NCBI GenBank assembly: GCA_040766645.1
Contig: JAXGQA010000002.1
Span: 37,424-101,423 of the forward strand
Length of the DNA: 64,000 nucleotides
Direction: 5' to 3'
From: Christensenellales bacterium
Lineage (GTDB): Bacteria > Bacillota > Clostridia > Christensenellales > UBA1431
Under the pieces are notes generated by a model that had not been told where the DNA came from, ran no database searches, and was given only the letters and a program-made list of their open reading frames with translations. How positions within the stretch are numbered: the stretch's first letter is position 1; each line of letters starts with the position of its first letter. Positions 36,545-46,311 of this stretch are shown here, piece by piece. The translations under genes were made by a program, and so were the position numbers.

Positions 36545-36832
36545 TTATTCTTCGATGATTGCGAGGATGTCGCTCTGGCTGAGCACAATGTATTCGTTCT
36601 CCTCGAACTTGACTTCCGTGCCCGCGTACTTGCGGTACAGCACCACGTCGCCGGGTTTGACGTGCATGGTGATCTCCTTGCCGTCCACGTTCCCGCCGGG
36701 GCCCACGGCGATGACTTCAGCGGTCTGCGGCTTTTCCTTGGCAGTGCCGGGCAGCACGATGCCGCTTTGGGTCACTTCTTCTGCAGGCTTGTTCACGATG
36801 ACGACTTTGTCGCCCAAAGGGATGATTTTCAT
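36545..36832 (-). CDS. groS: Co-chaperonin GroES
   Basis: MKIIPLGDKVVIVNKPAEEVTQSGIVLPGTAKEKPQTAEVIAVGPG. Confidence 0.97.
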   Translation of the reverse strand: MKIIPLGDKVVIVNKPAEEVTQSGIVLPGTAKEKPQTAEVIAVGPGGNVDGKEITMHVKPGDVVLYRKYAGTEVKFEENEYIVLSQSDILAIIEE

Positions 36833-37158: not shown

Positions 37159-37623
37159 ATGAACAAATGGGACAAGCGCATGATGGAGCTTACGCGCTAC
37201 ATCGCACAATGGTCCAGCTGCTATCAGCATAACCGCCACGTCGGCGCGGTCATAGTGCGGGACAAGCGCATCCTGACCACAGGCTACAACGGCGCGCCGG
37301 AGGGCGTTAAAAGCTGCGCGGAAAAGGGCGAGTGCCTCCGCCGCACCCTGGACATTCCATCCGGCACGCGGCACGAGCTGTGCTACGCCATCCACGCCGA
37401 ACAGAACGCCATAATACAGGCGGCCCGCATGGGCATATCCATACAAGGCGCGACGCTTTATTGCACGCACCAGCCCTGCGTCATCTGTACCAAGATGATC
37501 GTCAACGCCGGCATCGCCCGCATCGTATACGACGAGCCGTATCCGGACGATTTTTCGCTGCGTATACTGAAGGAAGCGGGCGTTATATCCGAGCGGTACG
37601 CAGACCTCGGCCCGGAGGAGTAA
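37159..37623 (+). CDS. comEB: dCMP deaminase (ComEB/cytidine-deoxycytidylate deaminase family)
   Basis: RBS aaggag, then ATG at 37159. [18 protein letters not shown] ... [11 protein letters not shown] ... [20 protein letters not shown] (HAE and PCxxC zinc motifs). Confidence 0.85.
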
Positions 37624-37725
37624 ATCCCTGTCAGCGCCGGCGCAACCGAATAAATGTATGCATTCCCGCCTCATATTTGTCGGGTTGTCCACATAGAGAT
37701 GAAGTAACAAACTTCAATCGGAGGG

Positions 37726-38627
37726 ATGATGATGCGGCGGGGCAGGAGAAGGCGCAGGCCGTCCGCGAGAAGAAAACACGGCGGGCGCGGTGCTGGTTGC
37801 GATGGTCATCCGGGTTGGCCTGGCGTTCCGCTCGGCGGGCGTGGCCGGGAAATGGATGCAGGACAACGTCATTGCGCCTATTTTCGAGGCGTTTTTGGGG
37901 GAGGGACGACGGCGTCGCCCACAGGCCGACCGCGGCGAACAGACCGGCGCAGCAGGTGGCGTGGAAGAGCTTTACGCTCCACTGCGTGCAGATGGGCGTT
38001 TTTTTCCAGCGAGGACAACGCCCGAGCTGGTTTGCTCGGCTGAAAGGCAGGGCGCGGCGGGATACCGGATGACCGCCAGCGGGAACGTGCGCGTACTGGT
38101 CTCGGCCTACCCCGATAAGCAGGATGCCCCGGATACGTGCGCGACCGGCTCATCGACGAGGGCATGGGACTGCACCGTGTATACGTTCACCTGCCTGGCG
38201 CTCGAGATAACGGTCACGGCCGACAAGACGCGCATCCCCGAGATACGCTCCTCGGCATCGACCGCTACCAGACCGCGATGGAGCGTTGCGGAGAGCTGGC
38301 TGTCGCGGTGGATGACGGCTCAATGTCGCAGACGTGGCGGTGCTGGAGGCGCGAACGCTGGCCCGGCGGATGGAGGCCGACGCCCAGAGCATTGATAGAG
38401 CGGCTGCGGCCAGCAACGAAGTCGTCCGGCTGATGCTCGAACTGTGCACACAGGCGGAGCGCTGGACGTGGTGGCCGAGGGGACGAATTTGAGCGCTGCC
38501 GGCGCGGCTGCGGTACGCGAGCCTCGCGCTGGCTGACGGGGCAGTCGGGTTCGTCCGGGACGCGCAGGTCTACTATCAGGCCAATGACGGTGTTGGGACA
38601 ACAGATAGACAATATGATATAATATAG
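37726..38627 (+). pseudogene. Fragmented ORF, possible SPOR-domain membrane protein; at least 5 frame switches as assembled
   Basis: RBS ggaggg + ATGATGATG at 37726. Arg-rich N-terminus. TM-like LVAMVIRVGLAF in a second frame. VQMGVF / FSSEDNARAG / GYRMTASGNVRVLVSAYPDKQDA / DRLIDEGMD..TVYTF are spread over three frames (SPOR-like beta-alpha-beta pattern). The reconstruction is tentative. Confidence 0.35.
38615..38623 (+). promoter_or_regulatory. Extended -10 element (TGaTATAAT), candidate promoter of the hydrogenase-linked regulatory cluster
   Basis: tgatataat lies ~100 nt upstream of the 38723 start. Weak -35 TTGGGA at 38593. Followed by a perfect 8-bp hairpin TATAGCCG-aacggga-CGGCTATA (38623-38645). 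Confidence 0.4.
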
Positions 38628-38722
38628 CCGAACGGGACGGCTATAGGGGAACCGGCGGAAACGGCTGAGGCTGTTCGTATGGTTTATGCTGCCGACCCTC
38701 TGATGATGAAGGGAGACAGACT

Positions 38723-39067
38723 ATGAAGGTGCGGGACATTGCCAGATCGTATCCGCGAGCATTCTCGTCGGGGAGGACAAGCTGGACTCGGGAGGCTCGC
38801 GGCCTGCGGGTCCGACCTCATGAGCACGTTGCCTATGTGAACGGAAAGGGACCTGTCCTTCTGACAGGGCTTGCGAACATCCTGTACGTATCCGACGGCC
38901 GAGGTGGCATAGATCTGCGGTGCATCCTGTTCGTGCGCGGGTCTGCAAAACGTTCTGACCTTGCCGAAGAACGTGGCATGGTGGTGATGCAGACCACGGA
39001 ATATCGATATACGAGGCCAGCGGGCTCCTGTTTGCCAACGCCCTGCCGCCCATCACTTTGAGTTGAA
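38723..39067 (+). pseudogene. DRTGG-domain protein (first copy), frameshifted as assembled
   Basis: MKVRDIA, then best reading across frames: ILVGEDKLD ... ACGSDLMS ... YVNGKGPVLLTGLAN ... CILFVRG ... AEERGMVVMQT ... YEASGLLFANALPPITLS. Same family pattern as the intact copy at 40867. Confidence 0.55.
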
Positions 39068-39079
39068 CGGAGCAAAAAG

Positions 39080-39501
39080 GTGACTGAATCCGCAGTCCTG
39101 TACAAGGAATATGCTATCGAACAGGGGAATTTTATCAAGGCGGGCGAGGCCTCCAGCGCTATAAAGCAGGATACCCGGCACCTCGGCGTCGACTCGGGCG
39201 TGATGCGCAGGGTGTCCATCGCGGCGTATGAGGCGGAGCCGGAACACATATCCACAGCTACGGCGGGACGCTCAGGGCGACCATATCCCCGAGGGACATA
39301 CTCGCTGCGTTTGAAGACACCGGCCCTGGGATAGAGGACGTGGAGCCGGGCCATGCAGGACGGCTACTCGACGGCCAGCGAAGAGGTGAAATATGGGCTG
39401 GGGGCTGGCTGGGGATGAGCAACATCAAGCGCTGCAGCGACGAGATGGATATACAGTCCTCGCCGGCCGGCACCATACTCACGCTCACCTTCGCGGTCTG
39501 A
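39080..39501 (+). pseudogene. Anti-sigma-factor-like serine kinase / HATPase_c protein, frameshifted as assembled
   Basis: YAIEQGNFIKAGEASSAIKQDTRHLGVDSGVMRRVSIAAYEAE ... GGTLRATISPRDILAAFEDTGPGIEDVE ... AMQDGYSTASEEVK ... GMSNIKRCSDEMDIQSSPAGTILTLTF, read across three frames. Confidence 0.7.
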
Positions 39502-39531
39502 ACCCAACGCGGCACTGAAAGGTGAAACGGA

Positions 39532-40870
39532 ATGAAAGATTATCCACACCCGTGCGGCTGGACCGGATGGGTGCAAGGGCTGCACAAACTGCATAGTATT
39601 GTCCCACGCAAGCCATACGTCAGCGTGGGGCAAGGCCTGCATCATCGCGGGCGAGCGCTGCAATGATCGCGGCGAATGCGCGGCAAATCTCCACCACGCC
39701 AAGATAGCCGTGACCGACGGGATGGAGAGCATGGAGCGTTTCCGGTACCGCATCGCGCTGCCGGCGCCGTCGCTGTACGGGCAGTTCAAGAACCTCCAGT
39801 CCATCGACCGGCTGCTGGACGCGCTTATTAACATCGGGTTCGACGACGTGTTCGAGGTCGCGCGCGGGGCCGACATGGTGACCGAGGCCACGCGCAGGCT
39901 TTGCCGCCTGGTGCGACAAGCGGCCGCTGATATCCTCTGCCTGCCCGGCGGTGTGCGGCTTATCCGCGTGCGTTTCCCCGCTTCTGCAGCACATATCCAA
40001 CATCGACTCGCCCATGGAGGTGGCGGCCACCATCGCCCGGCGAGTTCGCTGCGCGGCGTCAGCCCCGACGAGATAGGCGTTTTCTTCATCACGCCCTGCG
40101 CGGCCAAGATGACCAGCGTGATGAATCCCCTGGGACGGCCCACCACCGGCGTGGACGGGACCATATCCATCGTAGACATTTTCGGGGTTCTCAACGCGCA
40201 GCTCGGGCAGGCGGATATGAAGCGGCACGGCCTGAAGGCGCACGCGCTGCCCGCCGGCGTCGGATGGGCGGCGACCGGCGGCGAGGGCGAGGCGCTGGGG
40301 CGGGACAGCCACCTGTCGGTGGACGGGATACACAACATCATCCGGATGTTCGAGGAAGTGGAGAACGGGAAGTTCTCGGACCTGAAGTTTATCGAGGCGC
40401 TGGCCTGCACCGGCGGGTGTCTGGGCGGGCCGCTCACGTTTGAGAACAGCTACGTCGCCAAGATGCGGCTGGCGGGGCTCATCGCCAACATGCCCCGCGG
40501 ACAGGGGATGTCCGAGGCGGACATCGCGTTCGCGCACAGCGACAGGATGTATCTCAGCGAGCCGATAGAGCCTCTGCCCGTCGAGCGGCTGGACAGCGAT
40601 ATCGGGGAGGCCATCAAAAAGCTGGAGCGGGTCAATGCGCTCAGCGAGATACTGCCCGGGCTGGACTGCGGCTCCTGCGGCTCCCCCAACTGCCGGACGC
40701 TGGCCGAGGACATCGTGCGCGGGGACGCCGTGGAGCTGGACTGCATATTCCTGCTGAAAAACAAGGTCGCCTACCTCGCCAACGAGATGGTGAAGCTCGC
40801 GAGCGTGGACCATGCCTTCGACCAGCCGGAGCAGGCGGAGGGCGGCCCCAAACCAAAGGAAAGAGGTTGA
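39532..40870 (+). pseudogene. [FeFe]-hydrogenase-like protein (2x[4Fe-4S] ferredoxin N-terminus + Fe_hyd_lg_C-type domain + C-terminal CxxCxxxxC Fe-S motif), putative redox/H2 sensor; frameshifted as assembled
   Basis: ATG at 39532. CKGCTNC and CIDCGEC-type motifs are recoverable around 39560-39690 after frame correction. IALPAPSLYGQFKNL ... FDDVFEVARGAD. H-cluster-like Cys contexts: SSACPAVVRLIRVRFP (other frame, ~39930), FFITPCAAKMTS, IEALACTGGCLGGP. C-terminal LDCGSCGSPNCRTLAEDIV. Confidence 0.75.
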
Positions 40871-41214
40871 GGGACTTGACGGTAGCACAGCTTATGGAGC
40901 TTATCGACGGGACGCTTTTGACACAGGCCGGGACCGACAAAGAAATTTCCTCGGGGTGCGTGTGCGACCTTCTGAGCTGGGTGATGGCCCACGCCAGGCC
41001 GGGCGGGGTGTGGGTCACCGTGCAGACCCACTTGAACGTGGTGGCGGTCGCCGAGCTTAGTGACCTTGCCTGCGTGGTCCTGCCCTGCGGCATGGAGATG
41101 GAGCAGGCGGCCCTGGAAAAGGCGGGGGAGACGGGGCTTGCCGTCCTGTCCAGCCCGATGAGCGCTTTCGACATTGCCGGCATCCTGTACGCGCAGAACG
41201 TCAGGGGTGCCTGA
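40867..41214 (+). CDS. DRTGG-domain protein (second copy)
   Basis: LTVAQLMELIDGTLLTQAGTDKEISSGCVCDLLSWVMAHARPGGVWVTVQTHLNVVAVAELSDLACVVL ... AGETGLAVLSSPMSAFDIAGILY. TTG start overlaps the preceding stop. Confidence 0.7.
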   Translation: MRDLTVAQLMELIDGTLLTQAGTDKEISSGCVCDLLSWVMAHARPGGVWVTVQTHLNVVAVAELSDLACVVLPCGMEMEQAALEKAGETGLAVLSSPMSAFDIAGILYAQNVRGA

Positions 41215-41217
41215 AAA

Positions 41218-41937
41218 ATGAAGCTGGCGGCGGACCTGCACATACACAGTTGCCTGTCCCCCTGCGGGGACGACGACATGACGCCCAACAACATCGTGAA
41301 CATGGCCTATATCAAGCAACTGGGCGCCATAGCCGTTACCGACCACAACAGCGCGAAGAACCTCCCCGCCGTCGCGGAGGTTGCCAAAGCGCGCGGGCTG
41401 GTGCTGGTGCCCGGGCTGGAGGTGCAGACGCGGGAGGAAGTGCACCTTCTGTGCTATTTTGGGGAGTTGGAGGACGCGCTCCGGTTCGGCGACGTTCTAT
41501 ACGCGCATCTTCCCGGACTGCCGGCCAGCCCGGACGTGTTCGGCGAACAGCGCATCCTTAATGAAAATGACGAGCTTATCGGGACGGAACCCAGGCTTTT
41601 GATACAGTCGCTGGACCTGAGCATCGAACAGGTGGCCGCGTTGACCCGGGAGTACGGCGGGCTGGTGGTGCCCGCCCACGTTAACAAATCCGCAAACTCC
41701 ATTTTCTGCAACCTTGGTTTCATACCGCCGGGACTCGACTTTCCCGCGCTGGAAGTGTACAGAAAGGCGCCGCTTCCCGACGCCGACCTTTCCGGATACC
41801 ACCTTATCTACGCGTCGGACGCTCACTGCCTTTCGCAGATACTTGAGGCCGAGTTTTTCGTCGATGTAGAAACCTGCTCGGCCCGGGGCGTGCTGCGCGC
41901 ACTCCGGCGCTCTGACGGCCCGGAGGGCCTGCCCTAA
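41218..41937 (+). CDS. PHP-domain (polymerase/histidinol-phosphatase-like) metal-dependent phosphoesterase
   Basis: MKLAADLHIHSCLSPCGDDDMTPNNIVNMA ... AVTDHNS ... GLEVQTREEVHLLCYF ... PAHVNK ... ASDAH. Confidence 0.8.
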   Translation: MKLAADLHIHSCLSPCGDDDMTPNNIVNMAYIKQLGAIAVTDHNSAKNLPAVAEVAKARGLVLVPGLEVQTREEVHLLCYFGELEDALRFGDVLYAHLPGLPASPDVFGEQRILNENDELIGTEPRLLIQSLDLSIEQVAALTREYGGLVVPAHVNKSANSIFCNLGFIPPGLDFPALEVYRKAPLPDADLSGYHLIYASDAHCLSQILEAEFFVDVETCSARGVLRALRRSDGPEGLP

Positions 41938-42075
41938 AATGGTTATACAACAATCCTGAATAATTAGTGCATTTTTTGACGATGTATGATAAAATACAAA
42001 AGGTTGTGAAGGTCTTTTTGGTGTATTCATATAAAGTGGTTCATTTTTGCTTTGTTTAAGGAGGTTGTTCAAGGA

Positions 42076-42543
42076 ATGAGTCAGGACAAATTCGACCAAC
42101 TCCAGGCTGTGATCGACCAGTACAAGGACGCCAACGGCCCGCTGATGCCTATCATGCAGAAAGCGCAGGACATCTTCGGGGCGGTCACGTTCGAAGTGCA
42201 GCACTTCATAGCGGAGAAGATGGGCATCCCCATGACCGACGTATATGGCGTGGCGACGTTCTACTCGCAGTTTGCGCTCGAACCCAAGGGCGAGTATCTG
42301 GTGAGCGTCTGTCTGGGCACCGCATGCTACGTCAAGGGCGTGCAGAACGTGATGGAGCGCCTGAAGGAAAAGCTGGGCGTGGACGTCGGCCGGACTACCA
42401 AGGATGGCAAGTTCACGCTGGAAGCGACGCGCTGCCTCGGCTGCTGCGGCCTTGCGCCGGTCATGACCATAAACGAGAACGTTTACGGGCGTCTGGTTCC
42501 TGAAGACGTGGATCGCATCCTCGCTGAGTACGCGAAGAACTAG
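42076..42543 (+). CDS. NuoE-type [2Fe-2S] subunit (HydC-like) of an NADH-linked electron-bifurcating-type complex
   Basis: GPLMPIMQKAQDIFG ... VATFYSQF ... VCLGTACYVKG ... ATRCLGCCGLAPVMTIN. Confidence 0.85.
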   Translation: MSQDKFDQLQAVIDQYKDANGPLMPIMQKAQDIFGAVTFEVQHFIAEKMGIPMTDVYGVATFYSQFALEPKGEYLVSVCLGTACYVKGVQNVMERLKEKLGVDVGRTTKDGKFTLEATRCLGCCGLAPVMTINENVYGRLVPEDVDRILAEYAKN

Positions 42544-42558
42544 GGACCGGTCAGGGCC

Positions 42559-43116
42559 GTGGAAGAGATCTCGCTGCATGTGCTGGATATCGTCGAGAAC
42601 GCGATAGGCGCCTTAGCCACGTTTATACAAATCGAGATAGATGAGCAGGAAGCGGACGATACGCTCTGCGTGCAGGTGACCGACAACGGCAGGGGCATGC
42701 CGGCCGAATTCGCGGAAAAGGCCGACGACCCCTTCGTGACCACCCGGACGACGCGCAGAGTCGGGCTGGGGCTGCCGCTCTTCAAGCAGGGGGCCGTGGC
42801 CACCGGGGGCACGTTCGAGATACATTCCGAAATGGGCGCGGGGACGCGCGTCCGCGCGGTCTACCGGCGGTCGCACATCGACCGGCCGCCGCTGGGGGAC
42901 ATGGCGGGCACGGTGTTGGCCCTGATAGCCGTGAATCCCGATATCGATTTTGAATACGCACACCGGTACGGTGACAGGTCGTTCACGCTGGACACGCGGG
43001 AAGTCCGCGAAAAGCTGGGGGACGACGTTCCCCTGAGCGCGCCGATGGTTCAGGCATGGCTCAGGGACTACCTTCACGAGGGTGAAGCAGAACTTTATGG
43101 AGGTGTTGGCAAATGA
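42559..43116 (+). CDS. Histidine-kinase-like ATPase (HATPase_c only) embedded in the hyd operon
   Basis: HVLDIVENAIGA ... VTDNGRGMPAEF ... RRVGLGLPLFKQ ... GAGTRV. There is no HisKA or phospho-acceptor region. Confidence 0.75.
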   Translation: MEEISLHVLDIVENAIGALATFIQIEIDEQEADDTLCVQVTDNGRGMPAEFAEKADDPFVTTRTTRRVGLGLPLFKQGAVATGGTFEIHSEMGAGTRVRAVYRRSHIDRPPLGDMAGTVLALIAVNPDIDFEYAHRYGDRSFTLDTREVREKLGDDVPLSAPMVQAWLRDYLHEGEAELYGGVGK

Positions 43117-43481
43117 AATCTTTGCAAGAGCTTGAAGCTATCCGAAATGAAACGCTGGATTCCATGAACCTGAGGAAAGAGCACGACGGGACCCGCATCG
43201 TGGTCGGCATGGCCACCTGCGGCATCGCGGCCGGCGCCCGCCCCGTGCTTTTGAAGATTATGGAAGAGGTGCAGAAGCGCAACCTTTCCCACGTCGTCGT
43301 GGCCCAGACCGGCTGTATCGGCCTGTGCCGGCTCGAACCCATCGTCGAGGTGTTCAAGCCGGGACAGGAGAAGGTCACCTATGTGAAGATGACCCCCGAG
43401 CTTGCCTCAAAAGTGGTCGCCGAGCACATTGTCAACGACAATGTTGTGGAGTCGCAGACCATAGGCAAGTTCCAGGCATAA
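43113..43481 (+). CDS. Thioredoxin-like [2Fe-2S] ferredoxin
   Basis: IVVGMATCGIAAGARPV ... VAQTGCIGLCRLEPIVEV. ATG overlaps the preceding stop (ATGA). Confidence 0.8.
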   Translation: MKSLQELEAIRNETLDSMNLRKEHDGTRIVVGMATCGIAAGARPVLLKIMEEVQKRNLSHVVVAQTGCIGLCRLEPIVEVFKPGQEKVTYVKMTPELASKVVAEHIVNDNVVESQTIGKFQA

Positions 43482-43525: not shown

Positions 43526-45320
43526 ATGGATTTCTATCGTTCACACGTTTTGGTATGCCATGGTACGGGGTGTACGTCTTCGGATTCGCCGGGCATAAAA
43601 AAACAGTTTGAAGAAGCTATAGCGGCAAAAGGGCTGGACAAAGAGGTGCAGGTGGTCATGACGGGGTGTTTCGGCCTCTGCGCGTTGGGTCCGGTGGTCA
43701 TCATATACCCTGAAGGCTCGTTTTACAGCCGCGTGACCGTTGACGACGTCGACGAAATCGTGGAGGAGCATCTGGTCAAGGGCCGTATCGTATCGAGGCT
43801 CCTCTATCAGGAGAGCATCGCTCCCGACGCCTCCATTCGCTCCCTTGAGGAAGTGGATTTCTATAAAAAGCAAAAGCGCGTGGCGCTGCGCAACTGCGGC
43901 GTCATCAACCCCGAAAAGATTGAGGAATACATCGCGATGGACGGCTACAAGGCGCTGGGTAAGGTCCTTACCGAGATGAAGCCGCAGGAAGTCATCGACA
44001 TCATCAAGGCTTCGGGCCTGCGCGGCCGCGGCGGCGGCGGTTCCCCACCGGCGTCAAGTGGAGTTTTGCGAGCAACAGCACCGGCCAGAAATACGTCATC
44101 TGCAACGCGGACGAGGGCGACCCCGGCGCGTTCATGGACAGGTCCGTGCTGGAGGGCGACCCCAACGTCGTGCTGGAGGCCATGGCCATCGCGGGCTATG
44201 CCATCGGCGCGTCCCAGGGGTACATCTATGTGCGCGCCGAGTACCCCATCGCGGTCAAACGCCTGGAGATCGCTCTCGGTCAGGCGCGCGAGATGGGCCT
44301 TTGGGCAAGGATATCTTCGGCACCGGCTTTGATTTCGACATCGAGATACGCCTCGGGTCGGGCGCGTTCGTGTGCGGCGAGGAGACCGCGCTGATGGCGT
44401 CCATCGAGGGCGAGCGCGGCGAGCCGCGGCCCCGCCCGCCGTTCCCGGCCATCAAGGGGCTTTTCGGCAAGCCGACCATCATCAACAACGTCGAAACCTA
44501 CGCCAACATACCGCAGATCATCCTGAACGGGGCCGAGTGGTTCGCTTCCATGGGCACCGAGAAGAGCAAGGGCACCAAGGTGTTCGCGCTGGGCGGCAAG
44601 ATAGAGAACACCGGACTTGTTGAGATTCCCATGGGCACCACCCTGCGTGAGATCATTTATGAGATAGGCGGCGGCATCCCGGGCGGCAAGGCCTTCAAGG
44701 CCGTGCAGACCGGCGGCCCCTCCGGCGGCTGCATCACCACCGAGAACCTCGATATCCCCATCGACTATGACAACCTCATCTCCATAGGCTCCATGATGGG
44801 GTCGGGCGGGATGATCGTCATGGACGAGGACAACTGCATGGTGGACATCGCCCGCTTCTTCCTCGACTTCACTGTCGACGAGTCCTGCGGGAAGTGCCCC
44901 ACCTGCCGCATAGGCACCAAGCGCATGATCGAGATGCTGGATAAGATCTGCTCCGGCAAGGGCGAAGACGGCGACCTCGAGCGCCTCGAAGACCTCGCGG
45001 CGACCATCAAGAGCACCGCTCTGTGCGCGCTTGGGCAGACGGCCCCCAACCCCGTGCTGTCCACCATCCGCTACTTCCGCGACGAGTACGAGGCGCACAT
45101 CAAGGAGAAGCGCTGCCCCGCGGGCGTATGCAAGCACCTCCTGCAGGTTATAATCGACAAGGAGAAATGCAAAAAGTGCTCGCTGTGCTCAAAGGTGTGT
45201 CCGGTGTCGGCCATCTCCGGTGTGGTCAAGGAAACGCCGTTTGAGATCGACCAAACCAAGTGTATCAAGTGCGGCGCCTGCATAGAGAAGTGCCCGTTCG
45301 GCGCCATTAGCAAGAAGTAA
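43526..45320 (+). pseudogene. NuoF-type NADH-binding flavoprotein subunit (HydB-like) with N-terminal [2Fe-2S] and C-terminal 2x[4Fe-4S]; two T-run frameshifts as assembled
   Basis: MDFYRSHVLVCHGTGCTSS ... GLRGRGGGG[F]PTGVKW (ggtttcccc reads ggttcccc at ~44041) ... [13 protein letters not shown] ... REMGL[L]GKDIFG (ccttttggg reads cctttggg at ~44300) ... [15 protein letters not shown] ... [10 protein letters not shown] ... [12 protein letters not shown] / [12 protein letters not shown]. Confidence 0.88.
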
Positions 45321-45392: not shown

Positions 45393-46061
45393 ATGGACCT
45401 TGCTTTTGAACACGCCATAAAACACCCCGAGCGCCTCTGCGTCCGGATGGAGGACGGCAGCACATCCTTTGGCATCAGCCAGGACTGGCTGCCCAGCCGC
45501 TGGATGCGCAGGGCCGGCTGCGGGCCGTGCACGGCGTCCGGCATCTTCTTCTATCTTTCGAGGAAGGACCCGGCGCTGGAGCCGCTGTGCCCGTTTGCCG
45601 ACCCGGAAGCGCAGACGCTCACCCGCGAGCAGAGCGTCTGTCTGGTGTCGGCGGTGTGGAAGCACCTCACGCCCGGCAACAAGGGCGTGAACACGGTGCA
45701 GATGTTTTTGAGCGGGGCCATGGGCTACGCGCACCAGTCCGGCGTGGCGCTCACGCCGATGGATATGCATATACCCGGCATCGCGTCCCGCTACAGGCCG
45801 ATTTCGGAGTATGTGGATTTCATTCAGCAGGGGCTGGAGGACGACTGCCCGGTTGCCTTTCTGAACCTCTCCAACGGCGCCGAGACCAACCTCGACGGCT
45901 GGCACTGGGTCACCGTGGTCAGCCTGCGCCGCGATCCGGGCGATGCGAAGGTCCTGCTGGAGATTGCGGACGACACGAAGAAAAAGACGGTGGACTTCAA
46001 AAATGGTTTGGCTCCACCTTCTGGGCGGCGCGCTCGCGTGGTTCAAGGGTTGAGAGGATAG
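45393..46061 (+). CDS. Hypothetical protein, possible papain-fold (C39-like) cysteine peptidase
   Basis: ISQDWLPSRWMRRAGCGPCTASGIFFY (Q...GCGP Cys context) ... NLDGWHWVTVV (His). The C-terminus may continue in another frame (MWLHLLGGALAWFKG) after the A-run at ~46003. Confidence 0.35.
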   Translation: MDLAFEHAIKHPERLCVRMEDGSTSFGISQDWLPSRWMRRAGCGPCTASGIFFYLSRKDPALEPLCPFADPEAQTLTREQSVCLVSAVWKHLTPGNKGVNTVQMFLSGAMGYAHQSGVALTPMDMHIPGIASRYRPISEYVDFIQQGLEDDCPVAFLNLSNGAETNLDGWHWVTVVSLRRDPGDAKVLLEIADDTKKKTVDFKNGLAPPSGRRARVVQGLRG

Positions 46062-46311
46062 TCCTGACTCTGCACATCTTCTAAGGCAATACCGCGCAAA
46101 AGATCCGCCAGGACGGTACCCACGACTTAGTGCGGTGTTGCCCTAGTAAAATATGGTGTGCGTCCTCGTTTTTAACCCGGATGTTCCTCCAGCGCGTGCG
46201 CACAATCAACAAAACAGCCGTAAGCCGCTTCTGCGGCTTTTTCGTTTCAGCAGGCCTGCGTTTGTGGTATAGTATTACAGAAAATGGAAGGCATCTCAGG
46301 GGGATAAGCAT

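Follow-up and report, generated by a model that had tools for sequence, protein, structure and literature searches.

Within a 64,000-nucleotide stretch of the genome of a Christensenellales bacterium (GenBank assembly GCA_040766645.1, contig JAXGQA010000002.1; hereafter the window, numbered from its first letter), we analysed five co-directional, tightly packed genes that span positions 38723–41937 of the forward strand and are referred to below as the module. One of them encodes HydS, a predicted [FeFe] hydrogenase, and the others encode two DRTGG proteins, a SpoIIAB-like ATPase (HATPase) and a PHP-family phosphoesterase. The genes are as follows (aa, amino acids).

38723–39087, forward strand: DRTGG-1, with a single DRTGG domain; 125 aa in the clean copy described below; 7 frameshift errors in the window
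39080–39501, forward strand: HATPase, a SpoIIAB/RsbW-like GHKL ATPase or serine kinase; 141 aa; 3 frameshift errors in the window
39532–40870, forward strand: HydS, assigned to the group D (M2e) [FeFe] hydrogenases; 451 aa; 9 frameshift errors in the window, all before 40051
40876–41214, forward strand: DRTGG-2; 112 aa (115 aa if the start is the TTG at 40867); intact in the window
41218–41937, forward strand: PHP, a PHP-family metal-dependent phosphoesterase of EndoQ/TrpH-like type; 239 aa; intact in the window

The HATPase gene starts with GTG and overlaps the end of DRTGG-1 by 8 nucleotides (nt); in the clean copy the remaining junctions measure 29 nt (HATPase to HydS), 5 nt (HydS to DRTGG-2), 3 nt (DRTGG-2 to PHP) and 138 nt (PHP to the NuoE gene that follows). 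Pfam searches of the window open reading frames (ORFs) and of the clean orthologues from loci L001 and L051 returned, in order, DRTGG (PF07085), HATPase_c_2, two Fer4 domains with Fe_hyd_lg_C and FeS (PF04060), DRTGG and PHP. An earlier reading of the window sequence (the original prediction) had described tightly packed genes with overlapping or near-abutting junctions, the same five domain identities and a position upstream of NuoE/NuoF-type genes; the clean-copy coordinates bear out the packing, Pfam bears out the domains, and genes for NuoE, a second HATPase, a 2Fe-2S ferredoxin and NuoF are found downstream.

Sequence errors in the window and a clean copy of the locus

The frameshifts were counted by frameshift-aware alignment of the window with the proteins of the orthologous locus L001. 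Within the module they affect three genes (DRTGG-1, HATPase and the first 520 bp of HydS) rather than the four of five that had been thought to need frame correction, and none was found in DRTGG-2, PHP, NuoE, the second HATPase or the ferredoxin. Public contigs from four unrelated metagenomes, compared with window positions 37600–42100, match the window perfectly from ~40.1 kb on; between ~37.66 and 40.08 kb there are dozens of substitutions and indels, at which the contigs agree with one another against the window. A 4912-bp Logan contig (L051), found by searching for exact copies of the intact PHP protein, has uninterrupted genes for DRTGG-1 (125 aa, at 281–658 of the contig), HATPase (141 aa), HydS (451 aa), DRTGG-2 (112 aa) and PHP (239 aa), and the window departs from it by ~5% substitutions and ~5% indels over 38448–40100 and by essentially none afterwards. 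Because the contigs of four metagenomes agree against the window and L051 is intact, the module frameshifts are errors of the window sequence and are non-biological. Sequence errors also explain the broken second ferredoxin motif of HydS, which reads CNDRGECAANL in the raw window, with two cysteines apparently lost, and CIDCGECVRVCP in L051.

A decaying pseudogene cluster in this organism, as might be read from the 19 frameshifts that the window shows within 1.33 kb and from the two apparently missing cysteines, has next to no chance of being correct: the metagenome contigs contradict the window in the noisy block, the window is identical to L051 outside it, L051 and two further loci (L134, with 95% PHP identity, and L135) hold intact module genes with all cysteines kept, and the housekeeping genes (NuoF and the gyrB region) show isolated indels of the same kind that RNA contigs contradict. 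With this reading ruled out by the public contigs and the clean contig, it was dropped, and the intact copies indicate that the cluster is functional in the organism.

The same noisy block of ~2.4 kb (37660–40080) has shredded the SPOR-domain gene upstream of the module (~37726–38600). Isolated indels at 44039 and 44299 (both in NuoF) and at ~45998–46209 are contradicted by DNA or RNA contigs.

The encoded proteins

In the clean copy, HydS begins with two [4Fe-4S] motifs, CKGCTNCIKGCP and CIDCGECVRVCP, and keeps the four H-cluster cysteines (C300, C355, C499 and C503 of CpI), which align to the motifs of D. desulfuricans HydAB. Motif L1 reads SSACPAV, in which the proton-relay Cys299 is replaced by Ala139 and the ligand Cys300 is kept (C140); motif L2 reads ITPCAAK, in which Met353 is replaced by Thr193 and both Cys355 (C195) and Lys358 are kept; and motif L3 reads EALACTGGCLGGP, in which Met497 is replaced by Leu and Cys499 (C298) and Cys503 (C302) are kept. 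At the C-terminus lies LDCGSCGSPNC-x16-DC, a Cx2Cx4Cx16C arrangement with an Asp before the first and the last Cys. All the cysteine contexts quoted in the original prediction were recovered, namely those of L1 and L2, ALACTGGCLGGP and CGSCGSPNC(x16)C. Among 122 HydS orthologues from the fetched loci, no cluster cysteine varies (100% conserved); Ala stands in place of Cys299 in 95% and Ser or Thr in place of Met353 in 98%. The corrected protein, complete in its H-cluster cysteines, is thus predicted to provide all ligands of the H-cluster and of three [4Fe-4S] clusters, two of them N-terminal and one C-terminal. Pfam detected no PAS domain in HydS of L001 or L051, and the protein ends ~40 residues past the last Cys.

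Judged by identity, motifs, domains and model scores, HydS is a typical group D (M2e) [FeFe] hydrogenase. It is ~54% identical over its full length to TamHydS, the sequence of which is approximate, having been recovered from the machine-read coding sequence in the supplement of PMC8163306, and ~25% identical to group A HydA; the NCBIfam models for groups A and B1 score 120 bits against a cut-off of 406 and 157 bits against a cut-off of 450, respectively. HydS does not, then, group with the catalytic group A enzymes, and it falls in the class regarded as putative H2 sensors, as had been predicted. The PDB contains no group D structure; D. desulfuricans HydAB comes closest there, at 1e-22. Land et al. 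list the features of the M2e/group D subclass and of its type enzyme TamHydS (PMC8163306), and HydS shares with TamHydS the domain order (two [4Fe-4S] clusters, H-domain, Cx2Cx4Cx16C), the lack of a PAS domain, the replacement of C299 by Ala, of M353 by a hydroxyl residue (Thr here, Ser in TamHydS) and of M497 by Leu, and the Asp that is conserved before the first and the last C-terminal Cys (PMC13104023).

TamHydS is the only characterised member of group D; it binds an H-cluster and turns over H2 (PMC8163306), so the earlier description of HydS as merely hydrogenase-like was too cautious. TamHydS works at low rates, with a disrupted proton pathway (PMC8163306), and the slow turnover is accompanied by high H2 affinity and an H2-induced structural change (PMC8163306, PMC13104023). 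The unit is also less obscure than the phrase "poorly understood" had implied. The class and its kinase neighbour were described in 2010–2012, M2e genes that precede those of bifurcating hydrogenases and have a protein kinase gene alongside had been catalogued by 2012–2013 (Cthe_0335, Csac_1857 and Teth39_1463; PMC3561251, PMC3608648), and TamHydS has been studied in biochemical detail since 2019.

The N box (E51, N55), G1 box (D80-x-G-x-G; D80, G82 and G84) and G2 box (G107-F-G-A-G-x-G; G107, G111 and G113) of HATPase are invariant, and its best PDB matches are SpoIIAB structures (1til, 1l0o and 1th8, at E = 7e-12), with RsbW weaker. The NCBIfam scores are 45 bits for SpoIIAB (cut-off 135) and 17 bits for RsbW (cut-off 145). 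From its sequence, the protein would work like a SpoIIAB-type ATPase/kinase while lying outside the SpoIIAB equivalog.

In PHP, which has a Pfam score of 29.9 bits, the metal ligands H8, H10, H43, E68, H76, H154, D201 and H203 are invariant, as is Cys16. A profile search of the PDB placed EndoQ (5zb8) first at 1e-12, followed by the TrpH-like BAD_1165, TM0559, RNase AM and the pAp phosphatase Cv1693. An AlphaFold2 model with a predicted local distance difference test score (pLDDT) of 94.6 gave the same ranking in Foldseek, again with EndoQ first (TMq 0.70). The module protein has the PHP barrel and the metal-ligand pattern of EndoQ and TrpH/RNase AM, but its match spans residues 3–229 of the 400 in EndoQ and it consists of the ~230-aa core alone, so that the ~400-aa EndoQ architecture is not reached: the protein has neither the Zn ribbon nor the C-terminal DNA-binding domain of EndoQ, despite the name "PHP family Zn ribbon phosphoesterase" under which JGI lists close homologues. 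It further differs from EndoQ in that the invariant Cys16 replaces the residue found at that position, and in lying in a hydrogenase operon rather than in a DNA-repair context.

DRTGG-1 and DRTGG-2 are paralogues. The Pfam DRTGG model scores 33.6 bits on L001 DRTGG-1, 27.7 bits on a DRTGG-2 orthologue (cut-off 25.2) and 20.7 bits on the window DRTGG-2. Residues D32, S35, T50, N54 and K75 are invariant in DRTGG-1 and D34, S37, W49, T51 and N57 in DRTGG-2, which gives both proteins an invariant D-(L/M)-x-S motif and, in the loop that follows, a Thr and an Asn that are likewise invariant. The PDB matches of DRTGG-1 are weak (the DRTGG insert of CBS-pyrophosphatase and AF_1212). For DRTGG-2, the fold of an AlphaFold2 model (pLDDT 96.6) is closest to AF1212 (2ioj, TM 0.80), then to the CBS-pyrophosphatase DRTGG insert and the HPr kinase N-domain; in the model, helix 2 carries Ser37 on its first turn, T51–N57 lie in the strand-to-helix loop that follows, and the invariant residues would gather in the loops that lead from strand to helix along the C-terminal edge of the sheet.

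Many ~112-aa homologues of DRTGG-2 (P0254, P0278, P0282, P0290, P0292 and P0360) are called "AraC family transcriptional regulator" by NCBI. Neither Pfam nor NCBIfam finds a helix-turn-helix (HTH) or AraC domain in DRTGG-2, the 112 aa of which are wholly one DRTGG fold. The "AraC regulator" cited beside TamHydS (PMC8163306) is evidently a mislabelled DRTGG-2, and since DRTGG-2 has no HTH the argument from "AraC" for a transcriptional output is baseless. The mislabel has entered the TamHydS literature as evidence of transcriptional regulation.

Conservation, genomic context and expression

Loci were fetched from species-representative genomes with three independent seeds (50 loci with HydS, 80 with DRTGG-1 out of at least 596 matches, and 80 with the TamHydS sequence) and annotated with family hidden Markov models built for this analysis. 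The order DRTGG-1, HATPase, HydS, DRTGG-2, PHP was found in 173 of the 180 loci with enough flanking DNA, and L002, which fails solely through an ORF-start artefact, is the 174th complete locus. The recurrence of this order in 174 of 180 loci, with HydS and independently with DRTGG-1 as the seed, excludes a chance association: the five genes are an almost invariant unit across ~180 species. PHP alone is absent in 3 of the 180 loci (L065, L097 and L146), and DRTGG-2 and PHP are both absent in 3 (L131, L152 and L175). In these variants DRTGG-1, HATPase and HydS are always kept, which suggests a core trio plus a dispensable pair. There were no natural gene fusions among the top 120 homologues of HydS, PHP and DRTGG-2, all of which have the length and architecture of single proteins. 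A homologue search for the HydS class yielded at least 8000 protein clusters, with matches in ~600 or more species-representative genomes.

The TamHydS locus itself (L138, Thermoanaerobacter thermocopriae; 100% identical to the query) has the same four accessory genes and the same downstream NuoE, HATPase, ferredoxin and NuoF genes as the window, in a ten-gene order that ends NuoE-HATPase-ferredoxin-NuoF-HydA and that recurs in Caldanaerobacter subterraneus, Thermoanaerobacterium saccharolyticum and Coprothermobacter. It differs in that HydA follows NuoF there and is missing in the window's clade, and the window organism is of mesophile type, high in GC and from sludge/sediment communities, not a thermophile.

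Among the first 130 loci the module lies upstream of the hyd genes in 22, between hydC and the rest of the operon in 47, and divergent from them in 26. In many Oscillospiraceae, Acutalibacteraceae and Ruminococcus (L016–L023 and 39 others) it is inserted between hydC (NuoE) and HATPase-ferredoxin-hydB-hydA, so that the "sensor" genes are embedded inside the structural operon and do not precede it. In the 78 loci that offered at least 5 kb of sequence upstream and 6.5 kb downstream, NuoF and HydA were both present in 57 and neither in 17, and the predicted linkage to operons of bifurcating-type hydrogenases is therefore very strongly conserved.

NuoF without HydA occurred, among the same 78 loci, solely in the window's clade. 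A trimeric bifurcating group A hydrogenase encoded downstream is the usual context of group D enzymes but does not strictly define them. Group A HydA is absent throughout the 64-kb window, and neither HydA nor a NuoG-like subunit was found within the 10–25 kb searched around the module in the window, L001, L133 and L134. These four loci are 60–95% identical in their module and hyd proteins, with all genes intact, and share the order groEL/ES, dCMP deaminase, SPOR protein, module, NuoE-HATPase-ferredoxin-NuoF, (220-aa ORF), gyrB-gyrA. Either hydA lies elsewhere in these genomes, ±10–25 kb having been covered, or HydS stands closer to HydB/HydC than a pure sensor would.

Where HydA does adjoin the module (loci L002–L132, e.g. 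L002 10505–12250), 45 of 45 HydA proteins carry TSCSPGW in motif L1 in place of the textbook TSCCPxW. A. woodii HydA1 (7q4v) is also of the TSCSPGW type, and T. kivui HydA1 has TSCCP.

The further features of the window around the module are these.

38595–38623, forward strand: promoter-like site GGGACA-17-TATAAT with TG, from a consensus scan; identical sequence in the clean contig L051
41938–42075, forward strand: 138-bp AT-rich spacer; transcripts of the NuoE-NuoF genes apparently start within it
42076–42543, forward strand: NuoE/HydC (2Fe-2S thioredoxin-like), from Pfam and alignment
42559–43116, forward strand: second HATPase_c protein, 185 aa, from Pfam and alignment
43113–43481, forward strand: 2Fe-2S ferredoxin, from Pfam and alignment
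43526–45320, forward strand: NuoF/HydB, from Pfam and alignment; 2 frameshift errors in the window

Expression was assessed from the transcript contigs of four metatranscriptomes containing strains 95–99% identical to that of the window, RNA contigs over the module being compared with the noisy window stretch at lower stringency. The module contigs start at 38642–38646 in three runs and none covers 38300–38634; together with the promoter-like site at 38595–38623 these starts are no more than suggestive of a module promoter. The NuoE-NuoF contigs start at 42012, 42025, 42039 and 42039 in the four metatranscriptomes, inside the spacer between PHP and NuoE (one is preceded by adapter sequence), and no transcript contig lies over 41366–41998. 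Depth, a weak measure here because it is that of assembled contigs, is 2–6 and sparse over the module and 5–15 over NuoE-NuoF. The pattern is consistent with a regulatory operon of low abundance and, behind it, a structural operon with its own promoter. A terminator scan between PHP and NuoE gave nothing convincing, no Rfam family or riboswitch was found in the leader or in the PHP-NuoE spacer, and there is no Rex operator near the module, a single 3-mismatch match at 36779 comparing with ~1 expected by chance. Upstream of the module, the window's clade and Caldanaerobacter have SPOR-domain or similar membrane proteins and housekeeping genes.

The second HATPase_c protein (42559–43116) is an orphan, in that it has a histidine-kinase-type ATP domain without a dimerisation/His-phosphotransfer (DHp) domain, and it is kept in nearly all linked hyd operons. 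We know of no established function for an orphan HATPase_c between NuoE and ferredoxin. An ORF of 220–222 aa lies between NuoF and gyrB (window 45393–46061, forward strand; L133 14179–14841; L134 14188–14850) and is absent in L001; it has no match in Pfam or NCBIfam. Its GCGPC and GWHWVTV stretches are, as an impression only, reminiscent of a papain-like Cys/His peptidase.

A candidate H2/redox-sensing module

In our reading, to which we give about even odds, the module senses H2 or redox state and regulates the NADH/ferredoxin-linked (HydABC-type) hydrogenase genes next to it. Binding of H2 at the slow H-cluster would change the conformation or redox state of HydS, and the SpoIIAB-like ATPase would read this state and phosphorylate or sequester the DRTGG proteins, in both of which helix 2 opens with an invariant Ser (DLMS-D in DRTGG-1, DLLS-W in DRTGG-2), the candidate phosphosite. 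The PHP enzyme would then reset the state through phosphoester hydrolysis. Since the module encodes no DNA-binding protein, the output would either regulate the hydrogenase complex post-translationally or work by capturing a sigma factor or regulator whose gene lies elsewhere.

Support for a sensing role comes by analogy from the loci of group C (M2f) enzymes. Group C HydS/HfsB, which has been put forward as an H2 sensor, is a slow, PAS-bearing hydrogenase whose gene adjoins those of a catalytic hydrogenase, a Ser/Thr kinase and a phosphatase (PMC8163306, PMC5707799, PMC11837493). The examples from Thermotoga maritima, Ruminococcus albus and Thermoanaerobacterium (hfsABCD) resemble the module HydS in lacking the proton-relay Cys and in having N-terminal clusters and a C-terminal four-Cys motif, and the module may be likened to these kinase/phosphatase loci. 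It differs from them in having no PAS domain, a phosphoesterase of the unrelated PHP family and two additional DRTGG proteins. The group C phosphatase, reported as a serine phosphatase, is of PP2C type. With SpoIIAB-SpoIIAA and RsbW-RsbV the module shares a ~140-aa GHKL protein with an intact ATP site, small alpha/beta proteins with an invariant helix-start Ser, and a phosphoesterase, but it has no STAS antagonist and no sigma factor, its phosphatase is not PP2C, and its kinase-like protein scores 45 bits against the 135 of SpoIIAB. The kinase/phosphatase partner-switching circuit of the original prediction may reasonably be inferred, and is weakened by a PHP protein of nucleic-acid/nucleotide type.

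Several observations count against a sensing and signalling role as set out above. On sequence and model, the PHP protein resembles nucleic-acid/nucleotide phosphoesterases and not protein phosphatases, and phosphatases of the CpsB/YwqE type are absent from its 10 PDB profile matches and its top 50 Foldseek matches. The invariant DRTGG residues occupy a Rossmann-type ligand position and so may form a ligand site, not a phosphorylation site. Neither the module nor the ±10 kb around it in L133 and L134 encodes a STAS protein or a sigma factor; a DNA-binding regulator is likewise lacking over ±10 kb in the window's clade, and none lies next to the module in Caldanaerobacter. In the window's clade no HydA adjoins the module, and the regulated target there is uncertain; the expression evidence, consisting of assembled contigs from related strains, is soft. 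To our knowledge, no experiment links any group D enzyme to regulation. Published work has moreover removed the simplest signalling model (PMC13104023) and describes the signalling route of group D hydrogenases as unknown, and our text searches of the literature found no discussion of DRTGG or PHP proteins in hydrogenase loci.

The same PHP and DRTGG features would be accommodated if signalling ran through a nucleotide ligand, which we consider a minor but real possibility. The DRTGG proteins would sense a small molecule (an adenylate, a dinucleotide or another phosphorylated metabolite), as in the CBS-pyrophosphatase insert, the PHP protein would degrade a nucleotide or short RNA, and the GHKL protein would be an ATPase or clamp and not a kinase, with HydS still providing the H2/redox input. 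The relatives of PHP argue for this, comprising EndoQ, BAD_1165 (which was crystallised with AMP), RNase AM and the pAp phosphatase, as do the fold neighbours of DRTGG-2, which include a nucleotide-regulated CBS-pyrophosphatase insert besides AF1212 and the HPr kinase N-domain, and the location of the invariant DRTGG residues at the usual ligand crevice. On the other side, the module has no nucleotide cyclase or synthetase, and the nearest relatives of its GHKL protein are genuine serine kinases, SpoIIAB first and RsbW second. Moreover, in CBS-pyrophosphatases it is mainly the CBS domains that bind the nucleotides, and the module proteins have no such domains.

To return to H2/redox sensing through a kinase, a bolder version would make the module a new, self-contained and PAS-less H2 signalling device, in which HydS gates the SpoIIAB-like kinase, the DRTGG pair takes the place of STAS proteins as its substrate and is phosphorylated at the helix-start Ser, the EndoQ/TrpH-like PHP acts as a protein phosphatase that resets the pair and the output falls directly on HydB/HydC, HydS possibly being the hydrogenase partner of HydB/HydC in the HydA-less clade. 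Taken as a whole, we think this unlikely.

It is rather improbable, in our estimation, that HydS is instead a working hydrogenase subunit that exchanges electrons via NuoE/NuoF (HydC/HydB), is the sole hydrogenase gene of the operon in the window's clade and is served by the small proteins as assembly or activity modulators. This would suit the window, L001, L133 and L134, in which gyrB, or the 220-aa ORF and gyrB, directly follows NuoF and the genes are intact at 60–95% identity, as well as the 47 loci with the module inside the hyd operon. However, HydS lacks the NuoG-like N-terminal [2Fe-2S]/His-ligated cluster domain of HydABC HydA, a region that aligns solely within HydA. In HydA this NuoG-like domain has a role in docking to HydB. 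The module transcripts also appear much rarer than those of NuoE-NuoF, and hydA may lie beyond the ±10–25 kb covered. The catalysis of H2 turnover by TamHydS would favour a working subunit, but its low rates and disrupted proton pathway would not (PMC8163306).

The hydrogenase class and its placement beside hydrogenase operons are already known. What goes beyond the literature is that the "AraC regulator" is DRTGG-2, that the PHP protein is EndoQ/RNase AM-like and that the window's clade has NuoE/NuoF with no HydA nearby; the window locus itself adds little beyond one such HydA-less variant. Group D hydrogenases are widespread in fermentative anaerobes, where they adjoin the main H2-evolving enzymes of biofuel and gut organisms. 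The sole published genomic clue to how they might signal, the "AraC regulator", is a mis-annotated DRTGG protein, and the near-invariant set of four accessory genes provides concrete candidate signalling partners and residues.

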